From IMG/VR virus record IMGVR_UViG_3300014059_000004: a stretch of 64,000 nt of DNA. One strand, 5' to 3'. The translations under genes were made by a program, and so were the position numbers. Numbering within the stretch: position 1 is the stretch's first letter; each line of letters starts with the position of its first letter. The DNA comes from a virus. The notes beneath the pieces are model-generated. The model did not search any database and was not told where the DNA came from. It worked only from the letters and a program-made list of their open reading frames with translations. Of this stretch, positions 5,139-41,570 are shown in pieces.

Positions 5139-6029
5139 ATGGCGATAAATCTAGAGGCAATTCGTAAGCGTATGGCAGAACTCAACGGGCAGAAGAAGAC
5201 GTCTTCTGTTCAACTTTGGAAGCCAACGCCGGGCGAGTATAAAATTCGTGCAGTTCCTTGGAAGAACTCCACAGATGACCTGCCTTTTCTTGAGAGGTGG
5301 TTCTACTACATCGGAAACGCACAAGGAATCCTGTCGCCGAAGCAGTTCGGTAAGCCGGATCCGATCGATGATCTGATCAGGAAGCTGTATTCTTCTGGAA
5401 AGCCAGAAGATCGTGCAATGGCAAAGCAGCTTCATCCGAAGATGAGAGCGTACGTTGCTGTCGTTGTTAGGGGTCAGGAAGACAAGGGCGTCCAGGTTTG
5501 GAGCATCGGCAAGGGAATCTACAATCGCTTGCTTGGATTCTTCTCTGACGAGGAGGTTGGAGATTTTCTTGATCCTCTCGTTGGATTTGACCTGAAGGTC
5601 ACGATCACCCAAGTGCCTGGAAAACAATACCCAGACACGACTGTTGATGCTGCTCGTAGGCCATCAAAGCTGATGGAAGATCCTGCACAGATCGAGAAGT
5701 TGCTGGCATCGACGCCGAACCTAGACGACATGTATCGTCAGAAGTCGAAGGAAGAGATCGAGAAGGTCTTGAACGATTGGCTGAACAGCGACGTTGCTGC
5801 ATCAGAAGATGGCACCGAGAAGGGTGCACCTGCTAATGATGCGCTCGATGCACTTGTCAACGAAGTTGCAACCGCAGCGAAGGCACAACCTGCTTCTGCA
5901 CCTGCAGAAGAGCCAAAGAAGCAGAGCAAGAAAAAGTCGACGGCATCTGACGATGACGATGATGCACCTAAGAAGAAGCAAACACTTGACGATGCATTCA
6001 ACGAGCTGATGGAGACATTACGTGGCTAA
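5139..6029 (+). CDS. ssDNA-binding protein, T4 gp32-like
   Basis: N-terminus 'MAINLEAIRKRMAELNGQKKTSS...' resembles the gp32 N-terminal region. Acidic C-terminal tail 'ASDDDDDAPKKK...DDAFNELMETL'. Strong RBS 'aaggaaagagga' upstream. Confidence 0.55.
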   Translation: MAINLEAIRKRMAELNGQKKTSSVQLWKPTPGEYKIRAVPWKNSTDDLPFLERWFYYIGNAQGILSPKQFGKPDPIDDLIRKLYSSGKPEDRAMAKQLHPKMRAYVAVVVRGQEDKGVQVWSIGKGIYNRLLGFFSDEEVGDFLDPLVGFDLKVTITQVPGKQYPDTTVDAARRPSKLMEDPAQIEKLLASTPNLDDMYRQKSKEEIEKVLNDWLNSDVAASEDGTEKGAPANDALDALVNEVATAAKAQPASAPAEEPKKQSKKKSTASDDDDDAPKKKQTLDDAFNELMETLRG

Positions 6030-7254
6030 ACCTGCCAAGGTTGTTGCGGGTGAAGAACCTGCAAAGAAGAAAGCTGCAAACAGCGACGTTGACGATCTTA
6101 CGACTGAGATCATCAAGTCCATCAACAAAGAGTTCGGTCAACGTGTAGCGTACAACCTATCAGTAGACGAAGCGCCCACCAACGTGAAGCGTTGGTTGGA
6201 CACTGGTTCTATTCAGCTGAATTACGCTATCAGAAATGCTGCTGGAGGTGGTTATCCTGAAGGTCGAGTAATCGAGATTTCTGGACCACCGTCGATAGGT
6301 AAATCACACCTAGCGTACCACGCTGCTGCCATCGTCCAAGGGATGGGTGGGCTGGTCGTTTACATTGACACTGAGAATGCAACGCCAGTTGAGAAGCTTA
6401 AGAACGTTGGCATCAACGTTGCAAAGAGGTTCGTGTACTGCGATGCACATTGCACTGAAGAAGTATTTTCGATCATCGAATCTACTATCTTGAAGGCAAA
6501 GCAAGTCATGGACAAGAACGTTCCAATTCTTGTCATATGGGACTCAGTGGCAGCAACATCACCGAAGGCAGAACTAGACGGTGATTACGATCAAAACACA
6601 GTTGGTTTGCAAGCCAGAGTCATCAGCAAAGGCATGAGAAAGATCACTGGTGTGATCGGTCAGAATAACGTGACCCTGCTATGCCTCAACCAACTTCGAA
6701 CCGCTATCGGTGTAATGCACGGAGATCCAGACATCACGCCGGGCGGAAAATCGATTCCTTACCACGCAACGCTCAGAATCAGGCTTTCTTCTGGAACGCA
6801 AGTTAAAGATAGCAGCGGAAATGTCATTGGCATCCATGTCATCATGACGACGAAGAAGAACAAAGTCGCACCTCCTTTTAGGAAGTACGAATTTGACGTC
6901 ATCTTTGGCAGGGGAATTTCTGAGCACACTTACATCTTTGACGAACTTCGATCACACTGTGAAAAGAACGCTGTGACGATCGATCACAAGGATAGCAAGG
7001 GAAACGTTGAAAAGCTTCAGATCACCATTGAAGGTACACAAGCCTGGAAGACGCTGAAAGTTTTCAGCACCGTGACTGGAGAAGTTCTCATCGAGAAGAA
7101 GTTCCAAAAGAACAATTTTGATGAGATAATGGCAGATCCAGTGTATAAGCCATTCATTGACAAAGCCATAGAAGAGACGTACACTGTTCACGGTGGTGAT
7201 CCAGATTCGTCCGGTGAATCACCTTCGGAAGAAGAGGTCCTCGATGAAAGTTGA
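6022..7254 (+). CDS. uvsX: UvsX/RecA-family recombinase
   Basis: Walker A 'GPPSIGKSH'. RecA-fold core 'LVIWDSVAAT' and 'LLCLNQLR'. Overall length and architecture of UvsX. Confidence 0.75.
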   Translation: MAKPAKVVAGEEPAKKKAANSDVDDLTTEIIKSINKEFGQRVAYNLSVDEAPTNVKRWLDTGSIQLNYAIRNAAGGGYPEGRVIEISGPPSIGKSHLAYHAAAIVQGMGGLVVYIDTENATPVEKLKNVGINVAKRFVYCDAHCTEEVFSIIESTILKAKQVMDKNVPILVIWDSVAATSPKAELDGDYDQNTVGLQARVISKGMRKITGVIGQNNVTLLCLNQLRTAIGVMHGDPDITPGGKSIPYHATLRIRLSSGTQVKDSSGNVIGIHVIMTTKKNKVAPPFRKYEFDVIFGRGISEHTYIFDELRSHCEKNAVTIDHKDSKGNVEKLQITIEGTQAWKTLKVFSTVTGEVLIEKKFQKNNFDEIMADPVYKPFIDKAIEETYTVHGGDPDSSGESPSEEEVLDES

Positions 7255-7765
7255 AGTTCTCTACGATGGTCCGGCTGCTCCGGAGTACAAGACGCCTGGA
7301 GCAGCTGGGTGCGATCTGTACGCTGACGAGCACCAGATCGTCCTAGCAGGAAAGACAACGATCATCTCTACGGGACTTCGGCTTGCGATCCCAGAGGGAT
7401 ACGAAGGTCAAGTCAGGTCAAGATCAGGTCTTGCAACGAAAGGCGTGTTCGTTCTGAACTCTCCTGGTTGCATTGATTGTTTTTCGGGTGATTCGAAGAT
7501 TAGTACTCTTAATGGAAAAATGAGCATACATGATCTTCGAATCAATGATCATATTCATTCATTCAATGAATCAACGCATGAAATAGAAAGTGATATTGTC
7601 ACTGCCATTGTTGATGTGGGCGTAAGAGATGTTATCATTTTTCGCCTAGATGATAATACTACAATGTCTTTGACACCTGGAACGCTTGTATATACTAGCG
7701 CCGGCTTGAAGAGAGCTGATCAATTGACGTCATCTGATGAAATACTGGTTGACCATGATAGTTAG
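7244..7765 (+). CDS. dut: dUTPase N-terminal extein fused to a split-intein N-fragment (IntN, nt 7478-7762)
   Basis: dUTPase motifs 'AAGCDLYA' and 'IPEGYEGQVRSRSGLA'. Motif 3 'GCID' is then interrupted by intein block A 'CFSGDSKISTL'. The ORF ends at a TAG stop. The ATG overlaps the uvsX stop. Confidence 0.7.
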   Translation: MKVEVLYDGPAAPEYKTPGAAGCDLYADEHQIVLAGKTTIISTGLRLAIPEGYEGQVRSRSGLATKGVFVLNSPGCIDCFSGDSKISTLNGKMSIHDLRINDHIHSFNESTHEIESDIVTAIVDVGVRDVIIFRLDDNTTMSLTPGTLVYTSAGLKRADQLTSSDEILVDHDS

Positions 7766-8791
7766 TTATCATGGTCAAATGTTTGATATGCAACGTTGAA
7801 AAACCCTATTCTATCGTTGAACATCTACGTTGTAAGCACAAATTGTCAGTTGAAGCTTATCGTAAACAATTTGCCAACGCAGAAGTGAAATCTGCGTTGG
7901 CAATTGAAGCCATTTCTAAGCAACATAAGCTTGTTTGGCAAGATGAATCATACAAGCAAAAGATGCGTGCGTCTCGACAACGCACGCATCGTACAGATGA
8001 ATTTCGTAAAAAACAATCTGATATCATTAAAAGTACATACGCCCATGGGCATAGAACTTGGAATGATGGTCTGACAAAAGATTCGGATGAAAGACTGTCT
8101 TTGATTGGAAAAAAGAATTCAGAACATTTGACAGGCAGAACAAAAGATACACATGATTATCTTAAAGGAAAAAGTGTTTTCATGAAGAAATTTCATGAGG
8201 ATAATCCCGGTGTCTTTGTTCATAATAGAATTAATTGGTCAGAAGAACGAATAAAAGAATGGAAGGAAAAAATAAGTTCATCAGTTTGTGAAGCTTACCA
8301 TGATGGCAGATGTGGCAGTTCATATCGATATATCAAAGGTTGGTTCGAAACGAAAGATTCTAAAAGAGAACATTATGATTCATCATGGGAACTTTCTTTG
8401 ATGGAATTCTTGGAATCATTGAATGTTACGTGGACAAAAGCACATCGAATTACGATTGATTATCAATTTAATGGTAATAGAAGATACATTCCTGATTTTT
8501 TGATATCTTGGCGTGGTAAAAATTTGCTGCTTGAATTGAAGGGTTATGTTTCATCACAGATTGAACTTGATGAAAAAACTCAAGCAGCTAAAATTTGGTC
8601 AGAGAAACAAAACATGTGTTTTTCACTGTGTCATAGCGTAAACGAAGCAAAAGATGTCATTTGTAAATTTATGACGGAGGCAAATGAAACTAGCAAAAAT
8701 TGTTAATATTGAGCGTTCTACTGATCGTTGTTATGATTTGACCGTTGAAAACAATCATAATTTTTTCTGTAATGATGTTCTGATTCATAAC
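7478..8791 (+). mobile_element. fractured-gene element: split intein (IntN/IntC) with an interposed homing-endonuclease gene inserted in dut motif 3
   Basis: Intein block A sits after dut 'GCID'. IntC ends 'HN' followed by 'C-DYRG'. Joining the exteins restores canonical 'GxIDxDYRG'. Confidence 0.65.
7771..8706 (+). CDS. free-standing homing endonuclease between split-intein halves (Zn-finger N-terminus, PD-(D/E)xK Vsr-like C-terminus)
   Basis: 'CLICNV...HLRCKH' zinc finger. C-terminal '[18 protein letters not shown]' PD-(D/E)xK signature. Different reading frame from both dut halves. Confidence 0.5.
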
Positions 8792-9079
8792 TGTGATTAC
8801 AGAGGCGTTGTGAAAGTCATATTGCACAACGTAGGGTCATCGACATTTACTGTCAACAAAGGAGATAGGATAGCCCAGCTTGTAATTACGCCGATTATTC
8901 GAGCGTCATTCTCGCACTCTCGTGAGCTGCCAGAAACCGCTCGTGGAGCCGGTGGGTTTGGTTCAACTGGTACGTTAACTGATCTGTACTTGGGTCTTTG
9001 CGTTGATTACAGTTCAACATCTCTACACAAGGTGTTAAATGGACGAAAAATCAACGCAAAGACCCATTTTGATATATGA
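8684..9079 (+). CDS. dut: split-intein C-fragment (IntC, 36 aa) fused to dUTPase C-terminal extein
   Basis: '[36 protein letters not shown]' closely resembles DnaE-type IntC (cf. '...VYDIGVERDHNF...ASN'). It is followed by +1 Cys and dUTPase motif 3 'DYRGVVKV' and motif 4/5 'VITPI...[10 protein letters not shown]'. Confidence 0.7.
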
Positions 9080-10022
9080 CGCAATGAACAGCTTCGTGCG
9101 TGCATATGCAGCGTTTCCCGCAATGAACGTCAATGGTGAAGCTATGGGAGGCTGCGTTGGATTCTTGAAGACGCTTCGCAAGCTTGTTAACGAATACTCA
9201 CCATCTGCTGTGTACATCGCTTGGGAAGGTGGTGGATCGCAGAGAAGAAGAGCTCTGTTCTCAGAATACAAGATGAATCGACGACCAGAGAAGTTGAATC
9301 GATTCTATGAAGATGAAATACCAGATTCTGAAGAGAATCGTCAGCATCAACTGATAGTGCTGCTTAACTTGCTGAAGCACGTGCCAGTTTGTCAACTTTA
9401 TGTCTCTGATTGCGAAGGCGATGATCTTGTAGCTTACCTTGCACGGCAGAAATTTAAGAACGTTGACAAGATCATCGCTTCGTCTGACAAGGATATGTAC
9501 CAGCTCCTTGACGAGCAGACGAAGATCTACAATTTTCACAAGAAGATCATTGTGACAGGTGATGACATCTTGAATGAGTACAAGATCAAGCCGGGAAACT
9601 TTGGTCTAGCGAAAGCGTTGTGCGGTGATCCGTCTGACAACATCCCTGGTTTGAAGGGATTTGGGTTCAAGACAGCGTCTCGCGTTCTTCCGTTCTTGCA
9701 GCTTCAAGATGACATTCTTGTCAGCGATGTGATCGATTACTGCAATTCACACTATGACGAGTCAAAGTTGTACCAACGTGTTGTCGAAAATCAGGATCTT
9801 TTGAAGAGAAATTGGCGCCTCGTTCATCTAGACGGCAGCATGCTGTCCGCTGCTCAGGCTTCCAAAGTAGATCAATTGATCAGTACATACGTCCCACGTA
9901 GTGATAGGATCAGCTTTACTCGAGGGCTTATGAAGGAAGGCATCAATGATTTTGATGTTGCTGATTTCTTCATGACCTTCAACTGCATCGAGAACGTGGA
10001 AAATAGGACTAAAGAAAAATGA
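9039..10022 (+). CDS. 5'-3' exonuclease / RNase H (FEN family, T4 rnh-like)
   Basis: N-terminal '[14 protein letters not shown]' and '[10 protein letters not shown]...[14 protein letters not shown]', then '[11 protein letters not shown]'. The acidic clusters are typical of the FEN/PIN nuclease fold. A helix-hairpin-helix region '[18 protein letters not shown]' follows. Confidence 0.7.
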
Positions 10023-10807
10023 ACGATGACATCAAGCCGACAACGCAAGCTTCATTCGCACAGTATGGAAAGTCCTTCCAAGAAAAGCTGTGCCAAGCGC
10101 TGCTCGTTGACAAGCAGTTTGCAGAGCAGATGCTGGAGGTGTTTAACGTAACGTACCTAGAACCAAAGTACTTGGTGTTCCTTGCTGAACGTTATTTTTC
10201 GTACGCTCAGAAGTACAAGGTGTTTCCAACCATGCAGCTGCTCATCACCATCATCAGGGATGAGCTGAAGATTGGCACTGACGTTGTCATCAGAGATCAG
10301 ATAGTAGATTACTTGCAACGCATGCGTTCTAATCCTGACGTTGGAGATCTTCAGTACGTCAAGGAAAAGGCGCTCGATTTCTGCAGGAAGCAAGCTCTGC
10401 GCAGCGCGCTTGAAGAAGCAGTTGATCAGATCCAGGCTGAGAAGTACGAATCGATCGTTGAGGGTATCAAGAAGGCTGTGATGGTTGGAACTGCTCCGCA
10501 GTTGGGTCATGATTTCTTTGCTGATTATGAGAGTCGCTTCACTAAGTTGTCAAGGAATGCAATCGCCACAGGTCTTCCAGAGCTAGACAAGAAAGATATC
10601 TTGAATGGCGGCTTGGGGTCCGGCGAGCTAGGTTGCGTTGTTGGTGCGACTGGAACAGGAAAGTGTGTTCATCGTAATACTTACATTCAGGTAAAATATA
10701 CTGGGGTGAGAATCGATGGAAAACTATACAAGCCTTGGGATCGAATTGCAACAAAACGCGGAATCATCTTTGCTAGAGATGTCATCGAATCAGACGAGCT
10801 TGAGTGA
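10019..10807 (+). CDS. replicative helicase (DnaB/gp41-like) N-terminal part ending in Walker A, fused to a short intein N-fragment (nt 10664-10804)
   Basis: Walker A 'GATGTGK' is immediately followed by 'CVHRNTYIQV...' (intein block A). A stop follows after 47 intein residues. Confidence 0.55.
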   Translation: MNDDIKPTTQASFAQYGKSFQEKLCQALLVDKQFAEQMLEVFNVTYLEPKYLVFLAERYFSYAQKYKVFPTMQLLITIIRDELKIGTDVVIRDQIVDYLQRMRSNPDVGDLQYVKEKALDFCRKQALRSALEEAVDQIQAEKYESIVEGIKKAVMVGTAPQLGHDFFADYESRFTKLSRNAIATGLPELDKKDILNGGLGSGELGCVVGATGTGKCVHRNTYIQVKYTGVRIDGKLYKPWDRIATKRGIIFARDVIESDELE

Positions 10808-12318
10808 AAAATTCAAGTGTCAACATTGTTATCAACAATACAACAACCAGTCTGGTTTGATTACGCATATTCGACGCAAACATTCAACAACATTCACAGA
10901 TTACAAGTTGAAATTTGCGCATCTTTACAAAGTTGAAAAAAGAGAGAAAAAACTTAGTCTAAATGAACTAGCTAGACGTAAACGTGATGAAAAAGCTATT
11001 GATGATGGACTTAAAGTTTTGAAGTGCGAAATTTGCAATTATGAATCTTACTATTCTTTGATATCGCACATCGTAAGAAAACACGGTGTTGACATGAAGG
11101 AATATCGATCAAAGTATCCCTCAACTGTCGTGCAGCAAGTTACATCAGACATTAGGGAGAAAAATAAGAAGAATGCAACATTGCATCTTTCAGATCCGAT
11201 CAAGAAAGCAAACTTTCTAAAACGAAGATCTTTTCCCTCTGAGATGAAACATTGGATCAATAAGGGATTTTCATCAGATGAAGCAAAGAAAAAAGTTGCT
11301 GAATTTCAACAAAAGATTGCGCTTAAAGGCAATAATGAAAAAACGAAGGCAAAGCAGTCAATTAGAAATTCTGGTCAAAATAATCCAATGTCATTGACGT
11401 CAATTTCGAAACGCATGGGTGTTTCGAAGAATGAAGCAAGCAAATTGACGCCGTGTTATGGAAGATCAGGGTTTAAACACCCGATGTTTGGAAAAAAACA
11501 CAGCGTTGAAGCTTTGAACAAAATTGGTCGGCACATTAATCATACTGGTCGTTCGAAAATTGAACATGAAATGTCTGATTTGATCATTGCATTGTACGGT
11601 GGTCTAAAGAATGTTGGAGTCAACGGTTGGTGTTGTGATTACGTTAATCATAATCACCAAATCATAGTTGAATTTTTTGGTGATTATTGGCATCACAACC
11701 CAGAAAAATATGATAGAAATTTTGTCAACAACTTTACTAAACGTTCATCTGAAGAAGTTTGGTCACGTGATGCACGAAAATTGAATGAACTTAGAGAGAG
11801 TGGTTATAACGTTGTTGTGATCTGGGAATCTGATTGGCGAAACAAAAAAGAAGTCTGTTTGAACAGGATAAAAGATGCTTTCAATAGAACATTGTGAAGT
11901 TGTTGAAGTTGTTAAAATTGGTGATCTGTTTGATGATATTGGATTTGATGATAAATCTACTGTTGATGACTCTGGTGATTCATTCATTCCAAATGAATGG
12001 TCGATAGAAGTTAGATCACTTGACACTTTTTATCCTATAGATGGTTTTCGTTGGACAAAACCTGAACAGCAAGTGAAGTTGACATATGGCAAAGAATCTT
12101 CTTTGCAATGCTCACCAGAACACATTGTTTTGAAGTATTCTTCTACAGAAACTCAATGGACAAAAGTCAATGATCTATCGCCGGGTGATGACATTGTCAC
12201 TGTTAATGGCATTTGTACGATTGATTCGATTGATAATCTCGAGGAAATTGATCGTCTTTGCGATTTTCAAGTATCAATTGCGCACTCTTATTATGCTGAC
12301 GGTGTGTTGTCACATAAC
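10664..12318 (+). mobile_element. fractured-gene element: atypically split intein (47-aa N-fragment) plus homing-endonuclease gene inside the helicase P-loop
   Basis: The three pieces are in three different frames. The extein junction reconstitutes 'GTGK-S'. Confidence 0.5.
10716..11897 (+). CDS. free-standing homing endonuclease (C2H2 zinc fingers plus Vsr-like PD-(D/E)xK nuclease) between intein fragments
   Basis: 'CQHCYQQY...HIRRKH' and 'CEICNYES...HIVRKH' C2H2 fingers. C-terminal 'IIVEFFGDYWHHNP...VVVIWESDW' Vsr-like motif. Confidence 0.55.
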   Translation: MENYTSLGIELQQNAESSLLEMSSNQTSLSEKFKCQHCYQQYNNQSGLITHIRRKHSTTFTDYKLKFAHLYKVEKREKKLSLNELARRKRDEKAIDDGLKVLKCEICNYESYYSLISHIVRKHGVDMKEYRSKYPSTVVQQVTSDIREKNKKNATLHLSDPIKKANFLKRRSFPSEMKHWINKGFSSDEAKKKVAEFQQKIALKGNNEKTKAKQSIRNSGQNNPMSLTSISKRMGVSKNEASKLTPCYGRSGFKHPMFGKKHSVEALNKIGRHINHTGRSKIEHEMSDLIIALYGGLKNVGVNGWCCDYVNHNHQIIVEFFGDYWHHNPEKYDRNFVNNFTKRSSEEVWSRDARKLNELRESGYNVVVIWESDWRNKKEVCLNRIKDAFNRTL

Positions 12319-13116
12319 TCTCATTTCTTGACGTTCTTGGGTGCAATGGCGCTGAGGAACAACGTTGATGTTCTTCACTACACGTTCGAGCTATCAGAGA
12401 CTCAAGTTGGTATCAGGTACGATTCTAACTTGTGTGACATTGATTCGAATGCTGTCATTGACAGCAAGGATCGTATTCTTACTAAGTACGCAGAGCAAAA
12501 GCTGGGACGCTTGATCATCAAGTACTTTCCGACGAACACGGCTAGCATCTACACGCTTCGAAGTCACATCGAGCGCCTCGGAACGAAGGGTTTCAGGCCA
12601 GGATTGATCATCATCGACTATGCTGACATCATGAGATCAACTCGTCAGTTCGATTCTTTGAGACACGAGCTTAAGCTCGTTTACGAAGAACTAAGAGGAA
12701 TGGCTGGCGAGCTAGGAATCCCAGTGTGGACAGCGAGCCAGAGCAACAAAGAGGGAGCGACAAGCGAGATCATCGACATGGGAAACATGTCTGAAGCTTA
12801 CGGCAAGGCGATGATCGCTGACGTGATCGTCAGCATCTCTAGGCGCGCTCACGAGAAGTCAACGGGTCAAGGTCGATTGTACGTTGCAAAGAATCGTGCA
12901 GGGCGCGATGGTCTTGTTTACCCGTTGCACATTGACACCTCAAAGAGCAACTTTGAGATCTTGGGTGGACCGGGTTCTTTGGACGTCGCCATGAAGGAGA
13001 ACGAATCTGACATTAAGAAAGTTCTTCGTTCAAAGTGGAACGAGATGAGAAATGATCCAATCATCGGCGAAAATCTAAAAAGAGGAAGCGATTCTAGCGA
13101 TGACACGGGTTCTTGA
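11875..13116 (+). CDS. intein C-piece (148 aa, contains block B and terminal 'SHN') fused to helicase C-terminal RecA-like domain
   Basis: 'LTYGKESSLQCSPEHIVL' (block B-like)...'YYADGVLSHN|S', then helicase motifs 'LIIIDYADIM' and 'GIPVWTASQSNKEG'. Confidence 0.55.
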   Translation: MLSIEHCEVVEVVKIGDLFDDIGFDDKSTVDDSGDSFIPNEWSIEVRSLDTFYPIDGFRWTKPEQQVKLTYGKESSLQCSPEHIVLKYSSTETQWTKVNDLSPGDDIVTVNGICTIDSIDNLEEIDRLCDFQVSIAHSYYADGVLSHNSHFLTFLGAMALRNNVDVLHYTFELSETQVGIRYDSNLCDIDSNAVIDSKDRILTKYAEQKLGRLIIKYFPTNTASIYTLRSHIERLGTKGFRPGLIIIDYADIMRSTRQFDSLRHELKLVYEELRGMAGELGIPVWTASQSNKEGATSEIIDMGNMSEAYGKAMIADVIVSISRRAHEKSTGQGRLYVAKNRAGRDGLVYPLHIDTSKSNFEILGGPGSLDVAMKENESDIKKVLRSKWNEMRNDPIIGENLKRGSDSSDDTGS

Positions 13117-13176
13117 AGTGCGTATAGTTATGAAGCACCCCTTAGCGAACTGCTGTAGAGTGGAAAGAAAGCAAGA

Positions 13177-16100
13177 ATGAAGACATTTACGTACCAAGAA
13201 GCTCGTGATGCATCGGTTGACTATTTTTCTGGTGACACTCTAGCTGCTGATGTTTTTGTGTCCAAATATGCGTTGCGTGATTCAAATGATCAAGTTCTAG
13301 AGAGCACACCAGAAGCCATGCATCGTCGCCTGGCGAAGGAGTTCGCTAGGATAGAGTTGAACTACAAAAACTCTATTTCGTTCGAAGAAATCATGGAGTA
13401 TTTCAGCTCTTGGAAGATCGTGCCTCAAGGATCGCCGATGTCTGCGATTGGAAACACGAAGCAGATCCAGTCTCTGTCAAATTGCTTTGTCATTGAATCG
13501 CCGTACGATTCTTACGGCGGAATCATGAAGACCGACCAAGAGCAAGCTCAGATCATGAAGCGCCGCGGTGGTGTTGGATTCGACATCTCGTCAATCAGAC
13601 CAAAGGGATTGGTCACAACTAACGCTGCTCGTACGACCGATGGCATCGGTGTTTTCATGGAGCGCTTCAGCAACACTTGCAGGGAAGTCGCGCAAGGCGG
13701 TCGCCGTGGTGCTTTGATGATGACAATCTCTGTTCATCACCCAGAGATTCGCACGTTCATCAACATCAAGAAGAACGTTGAAAAAGTTACAGGCGCAAAC
13801 ATCTCGATCAGGTTGACTGATGAGTTCATGCGATCAGTGAAGGCTAGCGAGAAGTTCCAGCTAAGGTTCCCAGTTGAAGCAAATGCACAGCATACGATCA
13901 AAGAAGATGTCGACGCTGGTGAACTGTGGAATGAGATCATCGAGGCTGCTCATGCATCAGCTGAACCCGGTTTGCTATTTTGGGACAACGTTGTCAACAA
14001 CGGCCCAGCAGATGCATATCCCGGTTTCAAGTCTATCTCTACGAATCCTTGCTCTGAGATTGCTCTTTGCGCTTACGATTCGTGCAGATTGCTGCTTCTT
14101 AACGTTTCAAAGTTCGTAGAGAATCCTTTCACTGACAGAGCAAACTTCAACATCAAAGAGTTCAAGAGAGCTGCGTACGTTGCTCAACGCTTGATGGACG
14201 ACTTGGTTGATCTTGAGCTCGAAGCCGTCGATAGGATCATCGACAAGATCAACTCAGATCCAGAACCAGACGACGTAAAGAAGAACGAGCTAGATCTTTG
14301 GTTGAAGATCAGGGAAAAAGGTGCCTCGGGCCGTCGCACTGGTTTGGGAATCACTGGTCTTGGTGATGCCATTGCGTACGTTGGGTTGAAGTACGGATCA
14401 AGGGAATCTATCGATTTCACGGAAGATCTGTATAGAATGTTGGCTCTTTCTGCGTACCGTTCGTCAGTTGACATGGCGGCAGAACGTGGAGCATTTCCTG
14501 CGTTTTCTCACAACGTTGAAGCTGGTCATCCGTTCATTGAAAAGATCTTGGCACATGATGATGAGCTAAGGGCTGCATACAAGGTTCACGGTCGTCGTAA
14601 CATTGCCTTGACAACAACTGCACCCGCTGGATCAGTTTCAATCCTGACTCAAACAACGTCTGGTTGCGAACCTGTTTTTGCAGTTAGCTACAAGCGCAAG
14701 AAGAAGATCAATTCGAACGACGTCACGACCACAGCCAACTTTGTTGATGATCTTGGAGATCGTTGGCAAGAGTATACTGTCTACCATCATGGATTGAAGA
14801 TGTGGATGGATGTGACTGGAAAGACAGAGGCTGATATCGATGAATCGCCTTACAAGGGTTCTTCTAGTTCTGAGATCGATTGGCATGCTCGTGTTGACCT
14901 TCAAGCCGCAGCCCAAAGATGGATCTGCCATGCAATTTCCAGCACTGTCAACTTGCCATCAGATACGTCAGTTGAGACAGTTAAAAACATCTACATGCGA
15001 GGTTGGGAATCTGGGTGCAAGGGAATCACAGTGTATCGTGATGGTTGCAGAGCAGGCGTTCTATCGACAGAAGAGAAAAAGCCAAGTATTCAAGGAGCGT
15101 CAACCGATGGCTTGAAAGCCCTTCTTGACATTGTCACTAAGAACGTTAGCAGCATTCCATCAGCTGATTTGTACAAAAAATTGATTGAAGAAGAGCTCAC
15201 GAGGAGAGAGCCGACTCAACCAGAAAAGGTCGTCGAAGTTCATGCTCCGAAGCGTCCAAAAGAGCTAGAGTGTGACATCCATCGAGTCAACATCAAAGGC
15301 GAACAGTATCTTGTCTTCGTCGGATTGCTGAACGGCGTTCCATACGAAGTCTTTGCCGGTCTGTCAGAACACGTTGAAGTGCCAAAGAAAGTTAAGAAGG
15401 GAATCTTGATCAAGAATGGCAAGAAAGACGGCGTTGCAACGTACAATCTAAAGATTCCGGTGGGAGATGATGATTTTGTGACGTTCAAAGACGTTGTTAA
15501 CTTGTTTGACAACCCAACTTACGGTTCGTTCACCAGAACGTTGTCTCTAACGTTGAGGCATGGCATCCCGCTTCAGTACATCGTCGAGCAGCTTCGCAAA
15601 GACAAGCACAGCGACATGATGTCATTTTCAACTGTCATTGCTAGAGTCTTGAGCAAGGGTTACATCGTCGACGGAACGAAAGCAACGCAAGAAAAGCAGT
15701 GCTCAAGTTGCGGTTCTGATCAGCTAGCGTACATGGAAGGTTGCCAGACGTGCATGAACTGCGGAAGTAGCAAGTGTTCCTTATACTTAACTCCAAGACG
15801 AAAGGTTGATGACGTGAAAATCAAGATCACACCGCAGATGCTGAGGCAGCTTGTTAATGAAGAAGTTCTGAACGTGAAGCGCAAGGGAACTTTGAAGGAA
15901 GCCTTTGGACCATACGATGCTACTGGCGAGTATGATGACAAGGAATATGGCATGCAGCCGTGGAACTTTGAAGAGTCACACAGGGAATTGTTTGCGCAAG
16001 CGCTTGAACCGGTTATCAATGAATTCATGGAGTCTTTGGCTGAGATCGCTGAAAGAGCTTCACCACCAGATGCTAACATGTCTGCGCAAGATATTGGTAG

Positions 16101-16557
16101 CGATGAATACAACAGTTTCGGTGAAGACCTCAAAGAAGATCTTTTGAAGGTCATTGCTCAACACATGAAGAATGCGTCTGAAAATTTTGGTCTTTTAGAG
16201 GTTAACGTTATGAAGATAAAGCTAAGTGATCTGCGAAAGATCATCAGAGAAGTTGCAGTTTCACCTGCTGTCTTCAAGAGCAGCCAACCTGCAAAAGATC
16301 CGATGGAGAAGAAGAACATTGTCAAAGCGGTCTCTGATTTGAAGACAGCGTTCGAATCAGCGCTTCTAAGCAACCTTGTTCTTGCGAACCCAGAGAAGTA
16401 CGATGAATCCTCGAGAGAATTTGATGATCAGATGTACGAATCTCTTAAGACAACAGCGGCCTCAGCATCTGAACAAGTAGCATCAAAGATCAATGATGCA
16501 GTTCAGACTGCATGGGTTGCTGCACACAAAAACTCTAAGGTAAATCACTTAAAGTGA
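13177..16557 (+). CDS. nrdJ: ribonucleotide reductase, probably class II (NrdJ-like), with a roughly 250-aa non-RNR C-terminal extension
   Basis: Active-site 'NPCSEIAL'. C-terminal Zn-ribbon 'CSSCGSDQ...CQTCMNCGSSKC'. No nrdB partner. The extension carries two in-frame copies of the leader motif (see findings). Confidence 0.7.
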   Translation: MKTFTYQEARDASVDYFSGDTLAADVFVSKYALRDSNDQVLESTPEAMHRRLAKEFARIELNYKNSISFEEIMEYFSSWKIVPQGSPMSAIGNTKQIQSLSNCFVIESPYDSYGGIMKTDQEQAQIMKRRGGVGFDISSIRPKGLVTTNAARTTDGIGVFMERFSNTCREVAQGGRRGALMMTISVHHPEIRTFINIKKNVEKVTGANISIRLTDEFMRSVKASEKFQLRFPVEANAQHTIKEDVDAGELWNEIIEAAHASAEPGLLFWDNVVNNGPADAYPGFKSISTNPCSEIALCAYDSCRLLLLNVSKFVENPFTDRANFNIKEFKRAAYVAQRLMDDLVDLELEAVDRIIDKINSDPEPDDVKKNELDLWLKIREKGASGRRTGLGITGLGDAIAYVGLKYGSRESIDFTEDLYRMLALSAYRSSVDMAAERGAFPAFSHNVEAGHPFIEKILAHDDELRAAYKVHGRRNIALTTTAPAGSVSILTQTTSGCEPVFAVSYKRKKKINSNDVTTTANFVDDLGDRWQEYTVYHHGLKMWMDVTGKTEADIDESPYKGSSSSEIDWHARVDLQAAAQRWICHAISSTVNLPSDTSVETVKNIYMRGWESGCKGITVYRDGCRAGVLSTEEKKPSIQGASTDGLKALLDIVTKNVSSIPSADLYKKLIEEELTRREPTQPEKVVEVHAPKRPKELECDIHRVNIKGEQYLVFVGLLNGVPYEVFAGLSEHVEVPKKVKKGILIKNGKKDGVATYNLKIPVGDDDFVTFKDVVNLFDNPTYGSFTRTLSLTLRHGIPLQYIVEQLRKDKHSDMMSFSTVIARVLSKGYIVDGTKATQEKQCSSCGSDQLAYMEGCQTCMNCGSSKCSLYLTPRRKVDDVKIKITPQMLRQLVNEEVLNVKRKGTLKEAFGPYDATGEYDDKEYGMQPWNFEESHRELFAQALEPVINEFMESLAEIAERASPPDANMSAQDIGSDEYNSFGEDLKEDLLKVIAQHMKNASENFGLLEVNVMKIKLSDLRKIIREVAVSPAVFKSSQPAKDPMEKKNIVKAVSDLKTAFESALLSNLVLANPEKYDESSREFDDQMYESLKTTAASASEQVASKINDAVQTAWVAAHKNSKVNHLK

Positions 16558-16817
16558 AGATAACAGAAGCAGATCTCAGGAAGATCATCTCAGAAGAACT
16601 TTTGAGAGGTGTTCCTGAGTTTGTCATACGTCAGGCTTCAAGCGATTGCGTCGATCGTGTTCGACAGCACGTAACTCGGTTCATCCAGCAAAGAGCAGAG
16701 AATCAGACACACGCTCGCGAGCTAACAAAGCTAGCAAACCAGCTGCTTGAAGAGCTTGAGGACGAGATGTACGATCTGATCGAAGACAAGCTTCTAGCTT
16801 TCGTTCAAAGAACATAG
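16554..16817 (+). CDS. small protein of the shared N-terminal-leader family
   Basis: GTG start. 'VKITEADLRKIISEELL' leader. Confidence 0.4.
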   Translation: MKITEADLRKIISEELLRGVPEFVIRQASSDCVDRVRQHVTRFIQQRAENQTHARELTKLANQLLEELEDEMYDLIEDKLLAFVQRT

Positions 16818-16854
16818 CTTGAACAGCTAGCTTGGCATGCAGTAGAATGGCTGC

Positions 16855-17154
16855 ATGGATAACACGGAATACGTAGAATGCAAGTGTGGTTCATTTCCGC
16901 ACTTGCTTCGTTTTTACGTGGCAGAAGATGGATCAGTTGAAGTAGAGTACCTTCTGAAGGGTTACTTGCCGTGGTATAAGAGAATTTATCACGGCATTCG
17001 TTACATTTTGGGCTTTGACGTAGGACAAAATTTGTACGATTGTAGCATTCTTGATTGGGACGCTCAGAATAAGATCATAAAGTTGTTCAATGAAGTAGCA
17101 CATGAGCGCAGAAGAACGTATCTTCTAAATTACGACTATGGTGATGGTAAATGA
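16855..17154 (+). CDS. hypothetical protein
   Basis: 99-aa ORF, no motifs. Confidence 0.3.
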   Translation: MDNTEYVECKCGSFPHLLRFYVAEDGSVEVEYLLKGYLPWYKRIYHGIRYILGFDVGQNLYDCSILDWDAQNKIIKLFNEVAHERRRTYLLNYDYGDGK

Positions 17155-17187
17155 TACTACTACGCAGATCCACTATATCTATGATTC

Positions 17188-17943
17188 ATGTGGTATGTTT
17201 ATGTGTACAAAGATCCGATCGATTCTGTTGTGTTTTATGTAGGAAAAGGTCAAGGAAATCGTCATCGTTCACATCTGTTTAGAGCTAAAACTTGGATTGA
17301 TAAAGGAAAGCCAAACAAATATGGGTCGATCAATATTCACTTGATGAGAAAAATATCACAACTATGGGATAACAAGCTTGAGCCAATCGTTGAAATTCTC
17401 GAAAATTATTCTGTTGAAGAAGATGCATATTCAAGAGAGATTGTTGAAATTAACAATCATAGATCCGAACGATTGTGCAATATTGCAAATGGTGGTGAAG
17501 GTCTAAGAGCATGCGCAAAAGAAACAATAGAGAAAATTAAAGCTAGTCGAAAAATTTGGCTTGAATCTGAAAAAGGACAGTCTTGGAGAAAGACTATGTC
17601 AGAAAGTAGAAAAGGTGTAGGAAATCCTGCTTATGGTAAAAAAGAAGCAGAAGATCATAAAATAGCTAGAATGAAGAATCTGCTTTCAAAAACTCGTTGG
17701 AATAAAGGTCTACGAGGTGATCCACGTAGCGCAGGTCATCCAAAAGGTGTTTCTACGTGGAATGCTAAAGTATGTCGAATTACTAATCAGATTACTGGTC
17801 AGATCGTAGAAGCTGAATCAAAGACAAAATTGGCAAAGAAACTTAAAGAACAACATGTTGAATTGTCAATGTCATCTTTGTCTCGAGCTCTAGCAACTGG
17901 TAAGGCTGTTAAAAATTGGAAAGTTGAATATGTCACCAAATGA
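17188..17943 (+). CDS. free-standing GIY-YIG homing endonuclease
   Basis: 'YVYVYKDPIDSVVFYVGKGQGNRHRSH' GIY-YIG motif. Basic C-terminal DNA-binding region. Confidence 0.6.
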   Translation: MWYVYVYKDPIDSVVFYVGKGQGNRHRSHLFRAKTWIDKGKPNKYGSINIHLMRKISQLWDNKLEPIVEILENYSVEEDAYSREIVEINNHRSERLCNIANGGEGLRACAKETIEKIKASRKIWLESEKGQSWRKTMSESRKGVGNPAYGKKEAEDHKIARMKNLLSKTRWNKGLRGDPRSAGHPKGVSTWNAKVCRITNQITGQIVEAESKTKLAKKLKEQHVELSMSSLSRALATGKAVKNWKVEYVTK

Positions 17944-18592
17944 GAACAAAGTTGAATTGATTGGACTGTATGGTTCAGATGAAACACATGCACTTAGTGC
18001 ATGGACTTCAACGTCACGTAATTTGACTGATGAAAAAAGAGAACGTATACAACAGTTGCTTAAAATGCTAGCAGACAATGATCATGCTACGCCATTTGAA
18101 AAATCAAGCCTGCATTTTCTTGTGACAACGGACGTGGGATCACACATTCATCTTCTCAAGCATCGCATCGGTGTTTCTATCAACGCTGAATCTGCGCGGT
18201 ACAAAGAATTGAAAGATGACAAGTATTACGTTCCATTTGACTGGGATGTTGAAGAACGAGCTCAATACATTCAACACCTTGAATCTTCGTTGGCACAGTA
18301 CCATGAAGTTCTAGAACGTCTTGTGAAGAAAGGCATGTCAAGGAAGCGAGCAAAAGAATCTGCAAGATTTTACCTGCCGTACGGCAATCAGATCACCGCA
18401 GACGTGATGTTTAACTTCAGAAGCTTCGTTCACTTCTTGGAGCTCAGAAGGTCCAAGCATGCTCAAGCAGAGATCTACAACGTTGCTGATGCAATGCTTC
18501 GTTCAGTCGTCGCGGACGGCCGCTTCAACAAGAGCTTCTTGGCATTTGGATTCATCGACGAGATGGGTAACGTTCTAGAACCGGGAGAGTGA
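17924..18592 (+). CDS. thyX: flavin-dependent thymidylate synthase
   Basis: ThyX signature 'KHRIGVSINAESARY' (RHRxxSxxxxSxR). Confidence 0.8.
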   Translation: MNMSPNENKVELIGLYGSDETHALSAWTSTSRNLTDEKRERIQQLLKMLADNDHATPFEKSSLHFLVTTDVGSHIHLLKHRIGVSINAESARYKELKDDKYYVPFDWDVEERAQYIQHLESSLAQYHEVLERLVKKGMSRKRAKESARFYLPYGNQITADVMFNFRSFVHFLELRRSKHAQAEIYNVADAMLRSVVADGRFNKSFLAFGFIDEMGNVLEPGE

Positions 18593-29563: not shown

Positions 29564-30694
29564 ATGCACGTTAGGTTGAAAGATCTGCAGAACCTCGTAA
29601 GCAAGGTTCTTAATGAGGAAACTGTTCTTAGGGAACTGCGAGAAGAAGTTGCATCGAAGCTGGGTCCATCAGTCAACACTGCTGGTTCGCTCCAGCAAGT
29701 TGCTGAAGAAGCCATCTACAGGTTGGATGTGCTTGCTAGAACCGGTCGCAAGCATGAAATCTTTGATGAGCAGCTTAGCGCAAAGCTATCGACGATGAAA
29801 TCATCTGCTGCACGTGATCTTGCAGCTCGAATGTTGCCAGAACGCAAGCTTTTGAAGCTTGCTACTGATCCATCGCCAGCAGTTCGTCACAGCGTGGCAC
29901 GTCGAGTTCCTTTCAAGGTTCTCGTTGAGATGAAGAAGAAGTACAGGAATGACGACGAGCTAAACGTCATCTTTGAGAGCAGGAAGCTAAACGAAGCTGG
30001 TTTGCCGAAGCCAAAGGTTGATGACGAACAGTTTGACATGTACGGCGAAGAAGCTCTTGGCGATGCTGTGAAGCAACGTGATGATATTGAACTGTCTGAT
30101 CAATGGTACGAATCTCTTGCAGGGAAGTTCATCCAAGATTACGGAACGAACCTTGAGGGGCAGTGGGAAGAGCTTCTTGTGAAGAGATATTGTTCTTCTG
30201 TTAAAGCAACGTCTGGTGTTGAAGTTGACACAGAAAAACTTCTGAAGTGTGTTAAAGACTTGCTTGAAGAAAGAGAAGAGCTTCACCTAAAGAGGAACGA
30301 GCTTAAGGAATCTGCTTCCAGGCGTGCTTCACACATGCTGCCTGAGTACGTTGAATCCAAAGATCCAGTGAAAGAACTGTTGCATACAAACTGCTCTGCA
30401 TCGCAGTACGTGGCTCTAGCAAAAAGCGTGTTTAAGATCTCTGAGACAATTGCGTCGCACAGCGTTCGTAACGGCAGGCTCAACGAAGGTCTAGACATCA
30501 GCAACGTTGTTCCTTTCTCTGGGCGCTTGCCTTCAAAGGGTGAATTCCGCAACGTTGATGAACGTGCAGTTCAGCGTTACGTTGATTCTTGGAACATGAT
30601 CCAAGAGAGCAAGGGTGACATTGTGAAACTCACGTGGTCGCCGTCTCCGGCACAGCGTGGAAGATTTACGCTAAAGATCATGGAAAAGTTATGA
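29564..30694 (+). CDS. leader-family protein (376 aa)
   Basis: 'MHVRLKDLQNLVSKVLNEE' leader. Confidence 0.4.
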   Translation: MHVRLKDLQNLVSKVLNEETVLRELREEVASKLGPSVNTAGSLQQVAEEAIYRLDVLARTGRKHEIFDEQLSAKLSTMKSSAARDLAARMLPERKLLKLATDPSPAVRHSVARRVPFKVLVEMKKKYRNDDELNVIFESRKLNEAGLPKPKVDDEQFDMYGEEALGDAVKQRDDIELSDQWYESLAGKFIQDYGTNLEGQWEELLVKRYCSSVKATSGVEVDTEKLLKCVKDLLEEREELHLKRNELKESASRRASHMLPEYVESKDPVKELLHTNCSASQYVALAKSVFKISETIASHSVRNGRLNEGLDISNVVPFSGRLPSKGEFRNVDERAVQRYVDSWNMIQESKGDIVKLTWSPSPAQRGRFTLKIMEKL

Positions 30695-31245
30695 AGCGAC
30701 GCCTAGTAGAAACTCTAGAAGTTCAGATTGTCCTTGCTGATAACAACGCAGGGTTTGTCACAGAGAACATGTGTGCTGAGTGGGGATCTGTAACGTACCC
30801 TGAACTTTCAGTCATGCTAGTTCATTTGAGGCATCTTGCTCTGCTACACCAGACGCATCACTGGACTGCGAAGGGTGATCCATTCTACGGTGATCACTTG
30901 CTGTTTGAGCGTCTCTACAACTCAGTAACACCAGAGATTGATTCAGTAGCTGAGAAAGCTATTGGCCTAGGCACGACTGCAAATGTCGACGTTGCGCTTC
31001 AGACGATGCAGTTGAACAAGCTAGTTCAGAATTACGGCATGTCACAGATGATTCCAACTGAATCTGACCTAGCACGTAGGTCGCTGATGGCAGAGTATAA
31101 TTTTCTTGCCGTTGTCGCAAAACTTGTCGAGCTCATGAAAGAATCTGGAACGTTGACTCGAGGCCTAGACAACTTGATCGCTGGCATAGAAGATCAACAT
31201 GAAGGAAATTGCTACTTGCTGAAGCAAAGGTGCTCTTTAGGTTGA
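30691..31245 (+). CDS. Dps/ferritin-like protein
   Basis: 'HLALLHQTHHWTAKGDPFYGDHLLFERLY...DSVAEKAIGLG' Dps ferroxidase-site pattern. ATGA overlap with the upstream stop. Confidence 0.55.
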   Translation: MKRRLVETLEVQIVLADNNAGFVTENMCAEWGSVTYPELSVMLVHLRHLALLHQTHHWTAKGDPFYGDHLLFERLYNSVTPEIDSVAEKAIGLGTTANVDVALQTMQLNKLVQNYGMSQMIPTESDLARRSLMAEYNFLAVVAKLVELMKESGTLTRGLDNLIAGIEDQHEGNCYLLKQRCSLG

Positions 31246-41183: not shown

Positions 41184-41570
41184 TCCCATGCCAGTTCCAC
41201 CACCGCCCGAGCCTGCGAAAGGATTCCTGCCGTGTGCTCCAGCTCTAAATCCTCTGACGCTCTTTGTCACGTTTCTGCCAACAAACTTGAACCCAAGATC
41301 GCCAAGTTCTTTCTTGATGTGCGCAAGATCGCTAGCACCAGCTTCAGAGACTTCCATCTTTGAACCATACTTTGCTTGCGTCATGTTGCGTCCAAGAGCA
41401 TGCAAATCGATGAAGTTGTATTCATAGTTGTCATCATCTAGCTTGCTCTCTATGAAAGCCTCCAATGACATGTATTCAGGATTTTCTCGCAATTCGTTGA
41501 TTTCTTCGTCAAGATCATCCTCAAGCACTTCTGATATCAAACGTCTCAAGGCACCTAGTTGCAGCTTCAT
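41067..41570 (-). CDS. leader-family protein with Gly-rich C-terminus (minus strand)
   Basis: 'MKLQLGALRRLISEVLEDD' leader. C-terminal 'GSGGGGTGMGSAWGNPTGFSHGGGPGAVGGG'. Confidence 0.4.
   Translation of the reverse strand: MKLQLGALRRLISEVLEDDLDEEINELRENPEYMSLEAFIESKLDDDNYEYNFIDLHALGRNMTQAKYGSKMEVSEAGASDLAHIKKELGDLGFKFVGRNVTKSVRGFRAGAHGRNPFAGSGGGGTGMGSAWGNPTGFSHGGGPGAVGGGYNWSANDSKNLKMGSKR

Follow-up and report, generated by a model that had tools for sequence, protein, structure and literature searches.

This study concerns a long open reading frame (ORF) and the row of small genes joined to its 3' end in the IMG/VR virus record IMGVR_UViG_3300014059_000004, of which a stretch of 64,000 nt, called the window below, was analysed. 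The ORF runs from 13177 to 16557 on the plus strand and encodes 1126 aa. Its first 868 codons (13177–15780, plus strand) are nrdJ proper, the gene for a class II (B12-dependent) ribonucleotide reductase (RNR), which is recognised by Pfam and by phrog_84 and ends in the tail ...CQTCMNCGSSKCS. The Pfam matches on the long ORF are Ribonuc_red_lgN and Ribonuc_red_lgC, the latter covering aa 101–620, with the RNR all-alpha domain and barrel inside the first 620 residues, while phrog_84 (ribonucleotide reductase large subunit) aligned to aa 10–868. The homology to RNR ends at residue 868, a serine encoded by nt 15778–15780, which comes next after the Cys-rich Zn-ribbon tail CSSC...CQTCMNCGSSKC. In NrdJ this Cys-rich tail re-reduces the active site. 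The reductase has the same barrel, all-alpha domain and CxxC...CxxCxxC tail as known class II NrdJ proteins with a C-terminal Cys-rich Zn-finger, but where the relatives end at this tail the window lineage has at least 100 additional residues beyond it; in the window no stop is met in the same frame for 257 further codons. The window corresponds to the part of a large phage genome that serves replication and nucleotide metabolism. Besides a RecA/UvsX-type recombinase and a single-stranded DNA-binding protein it encodes polynucleotide kinase, RNA ligase, ThyX and thymidylate kinase; its DnaB helicase and DNA polymerase genes are split, and homing endonucleases are numerous.

The extension is made up of two modules, M1 and M2, and is followed by a third, M3, and all three begin with a similar leader motif, which we call the tag. 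M1 comprises 132 codons (15814–16209, plus strand; tag VKIKITPQMLRQLVNEE) and lies in frame with nrdJ on one side and M2 on the other; its motif VKIKITPQMLRQLVNEEV is read from a GTG at 15814–15816, with the sequence AAAGG at 15801–15805 (AAGG at 15802–05) placed 8 nt upstream. M2 (16210–16557, plus strand; tag MKIKLSDLRKIIRE) comprises 115 aa and a TGA, and its motif MKIKLSDLRKIIREV starts from the ATG at 16210, again 8 nt behind its upstream element, AGAGG at 16197–16201. M3 encodes 87 aa (16554–16817, plus strand; tag MKITEADLRKIISEE), with the motif MKITEADLRKIISEEL read from a GTG at 16554 that overlaps the TGA of the long ORF and M2 (GTGA). A sequence-only reading of the window had described this layout as a reductase open for about 250 aa past the Zn-ribbon, with two internal leader motifs, each behind a plausible ribosome-binding site and start codon, and a third module as a separate GTG-initiated gene at 16554–16817. 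The description holds, and its coordinates are right within a few bases: the GTG of M1 lies at 15814 and not at about 15808, and the agagg and ATG of M2 are spaced by 8 nt and not by 9. Neither M1, M2 and M3 nor the other tagged ORFs of the window gave anything significant in Pfam or PHROGs.

The origin of the extension became apparent from comparison with a set of 80 related IMG/VR loci, whose NrdJ is 50–66% identical over the C-terminal third; among the 80 is also L083, a short 95%-identical fragment on a contig that ends within nrdJ. In 73 out of 73 loci with the 3' end present, the nrdJ ORF stops 0–1 codon past the aligned ...KC(S/G). Codon 869 of the window, a TTA for leucine (15781–15783, plus strand), stands exactly at the nrdJ stop of the relatives. 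Since the junctions of the window (TCC TTA TACTTAACT) and of the relative L004 (GGC TGA TACTTAACT) can be aligned, codon 869 marks the position of the ancestral stop, for the loss of which a single base change suffices. In L006–L014 the end of nrdJ reads TGA/TAA TATTTAG. The tblastn alignment to the window crosses the stop codon in several loci (...CGWSRCS*YLVFMKIKIKDLRHLIRE...), and by a rough pattern a tag-type gene starts 8–65 nt past the nrdJ stop in 39 of 72 related loci. M3 belongs to a conserved family located after nrdJ in most relatives; the two alignments of this family (A3 and A5) comprise 57 database matches, every one of them unnamed.

The closest of the distant relatives is L004, where the syntenic order is nrdJ, four genes A to D, a 95-aa gene, thyX and tmk, and where all genes of the array are separate. 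Here nrdJ encodes 848 aa and ends with TGA. Gene A (139 aa) occupies the position of M1 and has no significant similarity to it (E 0.3), whereas gene B (115 aa) is 46% identical to M2, aligned from 1–115 to 1–115 with the same first Met (E 4e-37). Gene C, with about 116 aa, is an extra tag-like gene (MKKPIKLSKEALHRIIVTEV), and gene D (87 aa) is 60% identical to M3; the 95-aa gene is the homolog of window 16855–17154 and is followed by thyX and tmk. Stand-alone genes were also found when M1 and M2 together were used as the query in an exhaustive HMMER search of 1.84 billion representative proteins, which yielded 54 homologs, all of 73–186 aa. About 42 of these match query residues 134–245, mostly from their own residue 1, query residue 134 being the internal Met of M2, and about 11 stand-alone homologs of 111–165 aa match the M1 part; none of the 54 covers both modules and none has the length of NrdJ. 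The M1 and M2 homologs that were retrieved carry the tag at or near the N-terminus. A word-indexed protein search with the extension found a near-identical fragment only. The GenBank phage collection contained neither DNA nor proteins related to the extension, to a 583-aa tagged protein described below or to the tag, except for a match at E=2 in an uncultured 484-kb phage. The nearest NrdJ in GenBank phages is 36% identical and belongs to crAss-like phages, the nearest RecA-type recombinase is 39% identical, and no cultured relative of the window phage was found in these searches.

By the 73 relatives and the 54 short homologs, then, the extension is not a conserved domain of NrdJ, the one outcome that the sequence-only reading had named as speaking against separate modules. 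The comparison shows M1, M2 and M3 to be three originally separate small genes of an array that follows nrdJ in these large T4-like phages. The decayed stop codon, one of three origins that had been proposed for the array, is borne out by the reductases that end at the Zn-ribbon in 73 of 73 relatives, by the separate array of L004 and by 54 of 54 stand-alone homologs.

How far the fusion has spread was read from contigs of more than 15 further samples, obtained by exact-sequence look-ups of M3 and of a 99%-identical variant. The junction between nrdJ and M1 is stop-less (TTA) in 17 out of 17 independent assemblies from different samples that cover it. Because TTA is present in all 17, we regard this fusion as fixed and not as an assembly error. 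The junction between M1 and M2 comes in three haplotypes. In haplotype A, which comprises the window and three other assemblies (L003, L101 and L102), M1 and M2 are in frame without a stop and the long ORF has 1126 aa. The majority of assemblies belong to haplotype B, in which indels of 6 nt and 4 nt let the TGA of the fusion ORF overlap the ATG of M2 (ATGA) and the ORF has 1008 aa. In haplotype C (L097 and L106) the TGA lies 11 nt before the M2 ATG and the ORF has 969 aa. In both B and C, gene calling gives M2 as a 115-aa gene of its own. It is firmly established from these sequences that three ancestral genes are present and that two stops were lost in this lineage: the loss of the nrdJ stop is fixed, and the joining of M1 and M2 is polymorphic and confined to one haplotype. 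Both steps, a point change of a stop codon for nrdJ/M1 and an indel removing the ATGA overlap for M1/M2, are of the kinds by which genes are known to fuse, namely stop loss and frameshifting indels. Compared with a plain stop-loss fusion, however, the downstream genes here keep their own start signals, and one fusion is fixed while the other is polymorphic. In haplotype C (L097, L106) the nrdJ ORF starts 102 nt nearer to M3 than in haplotype B (L087), the ORFs having 969 and 1008 aa, which suggests an indel of about 34 codons inside nrdJ between these haplotypes.

M1 is recognisably one protein in haplotypes A, B and C, which differ in it by a 6-nt indel that keeps the frame and by a diverged C-terminal half. 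A crude ratio of nonsynonymous to synonymous polymorphism (pN/pS) against the other haplotypes was 0.03–0.12 for M2, 0–0.07 for M3 and 0.27–0.31 for M1. By this measure M1, M2 and M3 are real coding sequences under purifying selection in the stated frames, M1 being the fastest-evolving.

We then considered the signals by which the modules could be expressed. The heptamer ATACTTA, a candidate phage promoter element, lies at 15783–15789 on the plus strand, where it overlaps the former stop codon, 24 nt before the GTG of M1 and within the fused ORF. The window contains 11 copies where 2.77 are expected, a count not reached in any of 100 shuffles. The copies are found on the plus strand at 4791, 10677, 15783, 29293, 29539, 31750, 51615, 55173 and 60899 and on the minus strand at 32943–32949 and 62889–62895. 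All 11 share the direction of the local genes, and for most of them a start codon follows 2–32 nt further on; distant relatives, too, have TACTTA-like sequences after the nrdJ stop. ATACTTA can be inferred to be a promoter-type element of the phage. A sigma-70 and terminator scan of 13000–17400 gave no more sites than shuffled sequences, and no terminator was seen between nrdJ and M1, so that read-through transcription from the nrdJ promoter is possible as well.

As for translation, the Shine-Dalgarno (SD) duplex of the M2 ATG amounts to -6.5 kcal/mol and is stronger than that of 91% of the called starts; among the ATG and GTG sites within nrdJ, only 8% reach this value. The SD of the M1 GTG, at -3.6 kcal/mol, is average. 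In view of these signals M1, M2 and M3 are probably still made as separate proteins, an inference that is well founded for M2 and M3 but weak in the case of M1. Internal initiation, which had been proposed as another account of the array, is compatible with the decayed stop and probably complementary to it, given the strong SD of M2 and the ATACTTA upstream of M1. The claim that the layout implies RNR-linked expression found no support: each of the relatives' modules is a gene by itself, with an upstream motif of its own, and the fusion is lineage-specific and, for M2, limited to one haplotype. Programmed frameshifting at the out-of-frame stops before the modules ('ACTTAA/TTTTAG') was considered and rejected, as these bases are those of the conserved upstream ATACTTA-like motif and as stops in alternative frames within 10 codons are common by chance.

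The tag is not restricted to the array. A profile search of the window found seven copies, five at the starts of ORFs and two, those of M1 and M2, internal through the fusions only; no comparable matches were seen in wrong frames or on the wrong strand of the window. Besides M1 to M3 the leader-bearing genes are MKMKISTLRNVIKEVLE at 31775–32470 (plus strand, with an ATACTTA at 31750), MKLQLGALRRLISEVLEDD at 41067–41570 (minus strand, 167 aa), MKTFKVRLGDLRRVLREEIL at 52643–53212 (plus strand, 189 aa, tag profile 9.8 bits) and MAQKITVTRTALRELVSELL at 55032–56783 (plus strand, 583 aa). The third of these has no PHROG match, and the first and the last have no significant match in Pfam or PHROGs. 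In addition an ORF of 376 aa at 29564–30694 on the plus strand, with an ATACTTA at 29539 and no PHROG match, has a weak tag-like N-terminus, MHVRLKDLQNLVSKVL. With a profile made from unrelated IMG/VR proteins alone, M3 scored 21.6 bits, M2 13.9 bits and M1 less than 6 bits, from which we conclude that the tag of M1 is the most degenerate. The seven tags of the window end in VNE, IRE, ISE, IKE, ISE, LRE and VSE, all seven of the form [ILV]-x-E. Their DNA is not conserved, and beyond the tag the proteins have no detectable similarity except for a recurring MYD/MYE motif, which appears as a second motif in M2, M3 and genes of L004. A Dps-like or starvation-inducible DNA-binding protein (phrog_3636, phrog_858) is encoded at 30634–31245, between the tag genes at 29564 and 31775, and in L146 and L183 the sequence after a canonical tag looks Dps/ferritin-like by eye, for which Pfam gave no confirmation.

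To the tags of the window a scan of IMG/VR added at least 120 matching stretches, found with a degenerate DNA pattern for M-K-x5-L-R-x2-I-x-E-E. They contain at least 153 unique tagged proteins of 46–356 aa (median about 100), often encoded in tandem arrays of three or four genes. The overall consensus is MK[IL]TxxQLRxII[KR]EE[LIV], and at the positions left free by the pattern the conservation is 69% for I3, 82% for T4, 60% for Q7, 83% for I11 and 73% for [LIV]16. The invariant residues use all synonymous codons, six for Leu8 and five for Arg9, which puts the constraint on the peptide and not on the DNA. Most of the tagged proteins have no recognisable domain; in two cases the tag is followed by a cargo-like domain, once a TseH/NlpC-P60-type hydrolase (PF25218, 9e-15) and once an AAA_33 kinase. 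A search of the searchable literature on the motif strings found no description of the motif. In all, the tag is a widespread feature of uncultured freshwater and marine T4-like phages, as far as their sequences tell, where it heads small proteins that are otherwise unrelated and number in the hundreds. Some chains carry two tags, as seen in L154 (215 aa, with a complete MKITKRQLRRIIRE at residue 129), P0068, P0090, L167 and L196; judging from these ORFs, in-frame joining or duplication of tag modules is a recurrent event outside the window.

The neighbourhood of the tag genes is informative. Among 147 nearest flanking ORFs of at least 150 aa, the commonest PHROG annotation was 'head maturation protease' (phrog_207, n=14; phrog_3014, n=10), and these proteases belong to Pfam Peptidase_S77, the family of T4 gp21. 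By tblastn an S77 gene is present in 27 of the 120 tag loci. In 17 of these 27 the start of a tag gene is at most about 1.1 kb from the S77 start (19 within about 2 kb), on the same strand and either up- or downstream. In L185, for example, a T4-type portal gene (PF07230, 243 bits) comes first; two genes (273 and 180 aa) and then two tag genes (79 and 148 aa) follow, and a gene of 98 aa separates these from S77. The density of ATACTTA was also tried as a clade marker for S77 loci and was not discriminating.

We approached the head module of the clade to which the window phage belongs through a sister contig, the near-identical 104-kb JGI contig Ga0364571_10130, which extends upstream beyond the 101-kb Logan contig of the window. 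It encodes a tape-measure protein, a T4 gp26-type baseplate hub, a gp19-type tail tube and two paralogous sheath proteins; a canonical tag gene (MKITESQLRKLIKEVLKEE, 113 aa) separates the sheath genes from that of the tube, and farther on there are fibre-like proteins and what look like neck proteins by N-terminal similarity. The first three stretches walked on this contig, with the tail, sheath, neck and fibre genes, contained no S77, and the edge of the last stretch encodes a gp23-type major capsid protein (MCP; blastp against T4 gp23, E 9e-29). The sheath paralogs are large and stand in tandem (1004 and 1032 aa, L229 613–6787), and a GIY-YIG endonuclease gene lies together with the canonical tag gene between them and the tail tube.

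A metagenome scan with the MCP of the sister contig then gave 80 loci at 60–81% identity. An S77 gene lies upstream of the MCP gene in 36 out of 36 of these MCP-selected loci that have S77-matching sequence, at a distance of about 4 kb in those with a complete protease gene. In L375 the genes for terminase and a gp20-type portal are followed by a 286-aa gene, S77, a 141-aa gene starting MKMTRNELKDLVKE, a 78-aa gene starting MKLTSNLLKRIIMQEV, a 164-aa gene, a 644-aa scaffold-like protein and MCP; the S77 protein, encoded at 5972–6580, is 35% identical to T4 gp21 (E 3e-24). L375 is part of a 212,804-bp contig; the nrdJ locus L035 and the tail tube locus L288 are on a contig of the same length from the same sample. 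When the tag profile from unrelated sequences was applied to the MCP-selected loci it found 51 matches, 49 of them on the gene strand, and in at least 16 of these loci, which had been chosen by MCP homology alone, a conserved tag gene of about 80 aa begins 1.1–1.5 kb beyond the start of S77. The [ILV]-x-E end of the tag holds in matches from the nrdJ-selected and the MCP-selected loci as well. The gp23-type MCP of the clade (L375 9869–11749; L366 9869–11764) itself starts MKSFTIDQLAQGIKERH or MKFFSLDQLSQGIRDKH, an N-terminus that resembles the tag in its general shape (MK, QL, hydrophobic-K/R-E/D), and the 644-aa scaffold-like protein of L375 contains an internal APRIRELIEKELLEE.

The closest known counterpart to the tag is found in T4. 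The T4 prohead protease gp21 cleaves after L/I-x-E, the first 10 aa of IPIII form a capsid targeting sequence (CTS) that is sufficient for capsid targeting, and the internal proteins of T4 are diverse and have only the CTS in common (PMC9026906, PMC3012670). The targeting sequence is described as an N-terminal propeptide, it was placed N-terminally in fusions too, and gp21 processing takes place inside the prohead (PMC9026906). In the T4 record IPII and IPIII start with MKTYQEFIAE, gp22 with MLKEQLIAE and gp24 with MAKINELLRE; ipII and ipIII adjoin denV, e and nudE, and ipI adjoins gene 1. The likeness to the tag lies in several points. The CTS of IPI, IPII, IPIII and Alt, which gp21 removes, is likewise a short conserved N-terminal peptide in front of otherwise unrelated, fast-evolving small proteins; it has an MK start and a hydrophobic-x-Glu end that matches the L/I-x-E site of gp21; the ip genes, like the tag genes, are scattered among nucleotide-metabolism and early genes; and relatives in the clade of the window phage encode a gp21-family S77 protease and a gp20/gp23-type head.

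There are also differences. The tag has about 15 residues (MK[IL]TxxQLRxIIKEE) where the T4 CTS has 10 (MKTYQEFIAE), the Val at the first position of some of the window tag ends is outside the published L/I of the gp21 site (PMC9026906), and the tag is far more widespread and uniform, being present in hundreds of uncultured aquatic phages and in 7–8 copies in 64 kb here. The T4 core proteins gp67, gp68 and gp22 occupy slots around the protease gene that are equal to those of the tag genes: T4 has the order gp20, gp67 (80 aa), gp68 (141 aa), gp21, compared with portal, tag genes of 79 and 148 aa and S77 in L185, while in the window's clade two tagged genes come after S77 and before the scaffold-like protein and MCP. 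Sequence similarity of the tagged proteins to gp67, gp68 or gp22 was not detected, and the T4 core proteins, in contrast to the tagged ones, do not carry one uniform tag. In phiKZ and SPN3US, whose gp175 and gp245 are diverged gp21 homologs, many head-internal proteins are likewise cut after Glu at a short motif (PMC9026906, PMC5694885); their propeptides have the cleavage motif S/A/G-x-E in common, and not a conserved N-terminal sequence of 15 residues as here.

The explanation that we favour starts from separate genes. A single base change turned the nrdJ stop TGA or TAA into TTA, so that M1 is a C-terminal extension of every sampled NrdJ of the species. A net +1 indel close to the 3' end of M1, confined to the window haplotype, brought M1 and M2 into one frame and removed the ATGA overlap seen in haplotype B. 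M1 would be made from the upstream ATACTTA and its own GTG, M2 from its strong SD and ATG, and M3 by coupling through the GTGA overlap, the long fusion being a tolerated by-product. The tag itself would act as an N-terminal amphipathic helix that docks the protein on the scaffolding core of the prohead, after which the S77 prohead protease of the gp21 family would cleave behind [ILV]-x-E and so take the tag off. M1 to M3, like the remaining tagged proteins of the window, would on this view reside inside the head, where they would be packaged together with the DNA and might be injected. For the whole of this explanation, with separate genes, two lost stops, modules still made separately and a T4-like targeting tag, we estimate a probability of roughly 0.75. 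For one part of it, that the tag acts in the manner of the T4 CTS or of a cleaved propeptide, we would put the chances at about even on the sequence patterns and the analogy with T4. About even, too, are the chances that it serves generally as a portable signal for head targeting in a very large group of uncultured aquatic T4-like phages, whose sets of packaged and injected proteins could then be read from sequence. This part is put forward because the tag is a portable N-terminal peptide under peptide-level selection with an [ILV]-x-E end, has an S77 neighbourhood and is found in a clade with a T4-type head. Head targeting began as a guess in the sequence-only reading, and these same points now lend it circumstantial support.

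Several observations weigh against this explanation. No alignment-based homology was found between the tag and the T4 CTS (MKTYQEFIAE), the likeness being at the level of the pattern. I12, E14 and E15 were imposed by the search pattern in the IMG/VR set, and the [ILV]-x-E end is unbiased only in the matches from the window, the nrdJ loci and the MCP loci. The S77 protease has been seen only in relatives with 60–81% MCP identity, and the link of L375 to an nrdJ-bearing contig rests on the equal length of 212,804 bp. Some members of the M3 family have 8–15 residues in front of the tag, and internal or C-terminal tag-like copies exist. The SD of M1 is indistinguishable from that of background ATG and GTG sites in nrdJ, and M1, given that its fusion to nrdJ has become fixed and that it evolves under constraint there, may be a working C-terminal part of NrdJ and not a by-product. 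Finally, the AlphaFold2 model of M3 (predicted local distance difference test score, pLDDT, 91) is a confident protein of three helices in which the tag is helix 1 (residues 5–17), so that the tag could, by this model, be a part of the fold and not a removable peptide. A fold search with the model against viral structures gave no match below E=0.6.

The last point leads to the alternative that the tag is the conserved first helix of a family of diversified paralogous small helical proteins, perhaps for partner binding or oligomerisation, which would have cytoplasmic roles such as nucleotide metabolism or the takeover of the host. The M3 model, the residues preceding the tag in some family members, the internal and C-terminal copies, the recurrence of MYD/MYE in M2, M3 and the L004 genes and the presence of an M3-type gene beside nrdJ in a large share of the relatives are in line with it. 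The tag nevertheless precedes unrelated globular domains (the TseH-like hydrolase and the AAA_33 kinase) and proteins of 46–356 aa without detectable similarity after it, and the S77 neighbourhood, the positions equal to those of gp67, gp68 and gp22 and the invariant [ILV]-x-E would be left unexplained; we therefore hold an integral helix to be possible and on the whole rather unlikely. A further proposal would shift the emphasis from the peptide to the DNA, with the tag as the boundary of a recombination or expression cassette (promoter, ribosome-binding site and first codons) that serves gene shuffling, as has been proposed for the internal-protein locus of T4, and with a secondary role for the peptide. 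Tandem arrays of variable content are indeed common, the 3' half of M1 differs sharply between haplotypes in a way that fits allele exchange, and ATACTTA is conserved upstream; the use of six codons for Leu8 and five for Arg9, however, places the conservation at the amino-acid level, and the DNA of the seven window tags is not conserved, which makes such a boundary improbable as the main role.

The remaining proposals deal with the fused chain and with the fate of the proteins. NrdJ, M1 and M2 could form one functional polyprotein with the internal tags as cleavable linkers or targeting elements, such that S77 frees the modules or a portion of the RNR pool is carried into the prohead. The fixation of the nrdJ/M1 fusion in 17 assemblies, the purifying selection on M1 in the fused frame, the [ILV]-x-E at the end of each internal tag and the in-frame double-tag proteins elsewhere (L154, P0068, P0090) are in keeping with this. 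It conflicts with the absence of the fusion from all 73 more distant relatives, with an M1/M2 fusion in one of three haplotypes and with the strong SD that M2 has retained, and the T4 targeting sequence is N-terminal and gp21 acts in the prohead (PMC9026906), with no hint that a tag works 870 residues into a chain. The polyprotein cut by the protease that recognises the leaders, which the sequence-only reading had offered beside internal initiation and stop decay, is thus left without support, and we consider it highly improbable. More improbable still is a specific use of the in-frame fusion in which the tags target the chain and serve as S77-cleavable linkers, so that some RNR enters the prohead with M1 and M2, is trimmed and is delivered to the next host; if this were true, the supply of deoxynucleoside triphosphates would begin before any phage gene is expressed. 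Least credible of all is a tag for N-terminal degradation or for recognition by other host machinery, for example of the ClpX type, that would time the lifetime of the proteins. The ClpX N-motifs have a shape comparable to the N-terminus of the tag, the general shape being Met with basic and hydrophobic residues at the extreme N-terminus; no result supports this role otherwise, and it would leave the head-module neighbourhood unexplained.

On the explanation by lost stops and a targeting tag, the fusion is a natural example of adjacent genes that merge by stop loss, with one step fixed and the other polymorphic, and it calls for some caution in annotation, as a '1126-aa NrdJ' is here three genes. 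We regard the tag family as the more valuable result of the two; it looks like an undescribed and widespread variant of the T4 targeting and propeptide system. Should the tag prove to be a CTS, the proteins that these uncultured phages keep in the head and inject, which are likely factors of anti-defence and takeover, could be listed from sequence, and a natural and widely compatible packaging tag would be available for engineering.

Some further features of the window concern mobile elements and nucleotide metabolism. A gene for a GIY-YIG homing endonuclease lies at 17188–17943, between a 99-aa gene and thyX. It is absent from nearly all other haplotypes, where thyX is directly next, and represents a presence/absence polymorphism of a mobile endonuclease. 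Core genes are apparently split by intein or homing-endonuclease insertions at 7193–9079, 10019–13116 and 36130–41183: a dUTPase with a TnsA-like/intein piece, a DnaB helicase with a zinc-finger endonuclease and an intein fragment, and a DNA polymerase in two pieces around an HNH gene. In the sister contig (L085) the dUTPase is uninterrupted. Two thymidylate-synthase-type genes, ThyX (PF02511) and a match to phrog_160, are present in the window at 17924–18592 and 48238–48897, with genes for thymidine kinase, dCMP deaminase and an HslV-like peptidase near them.

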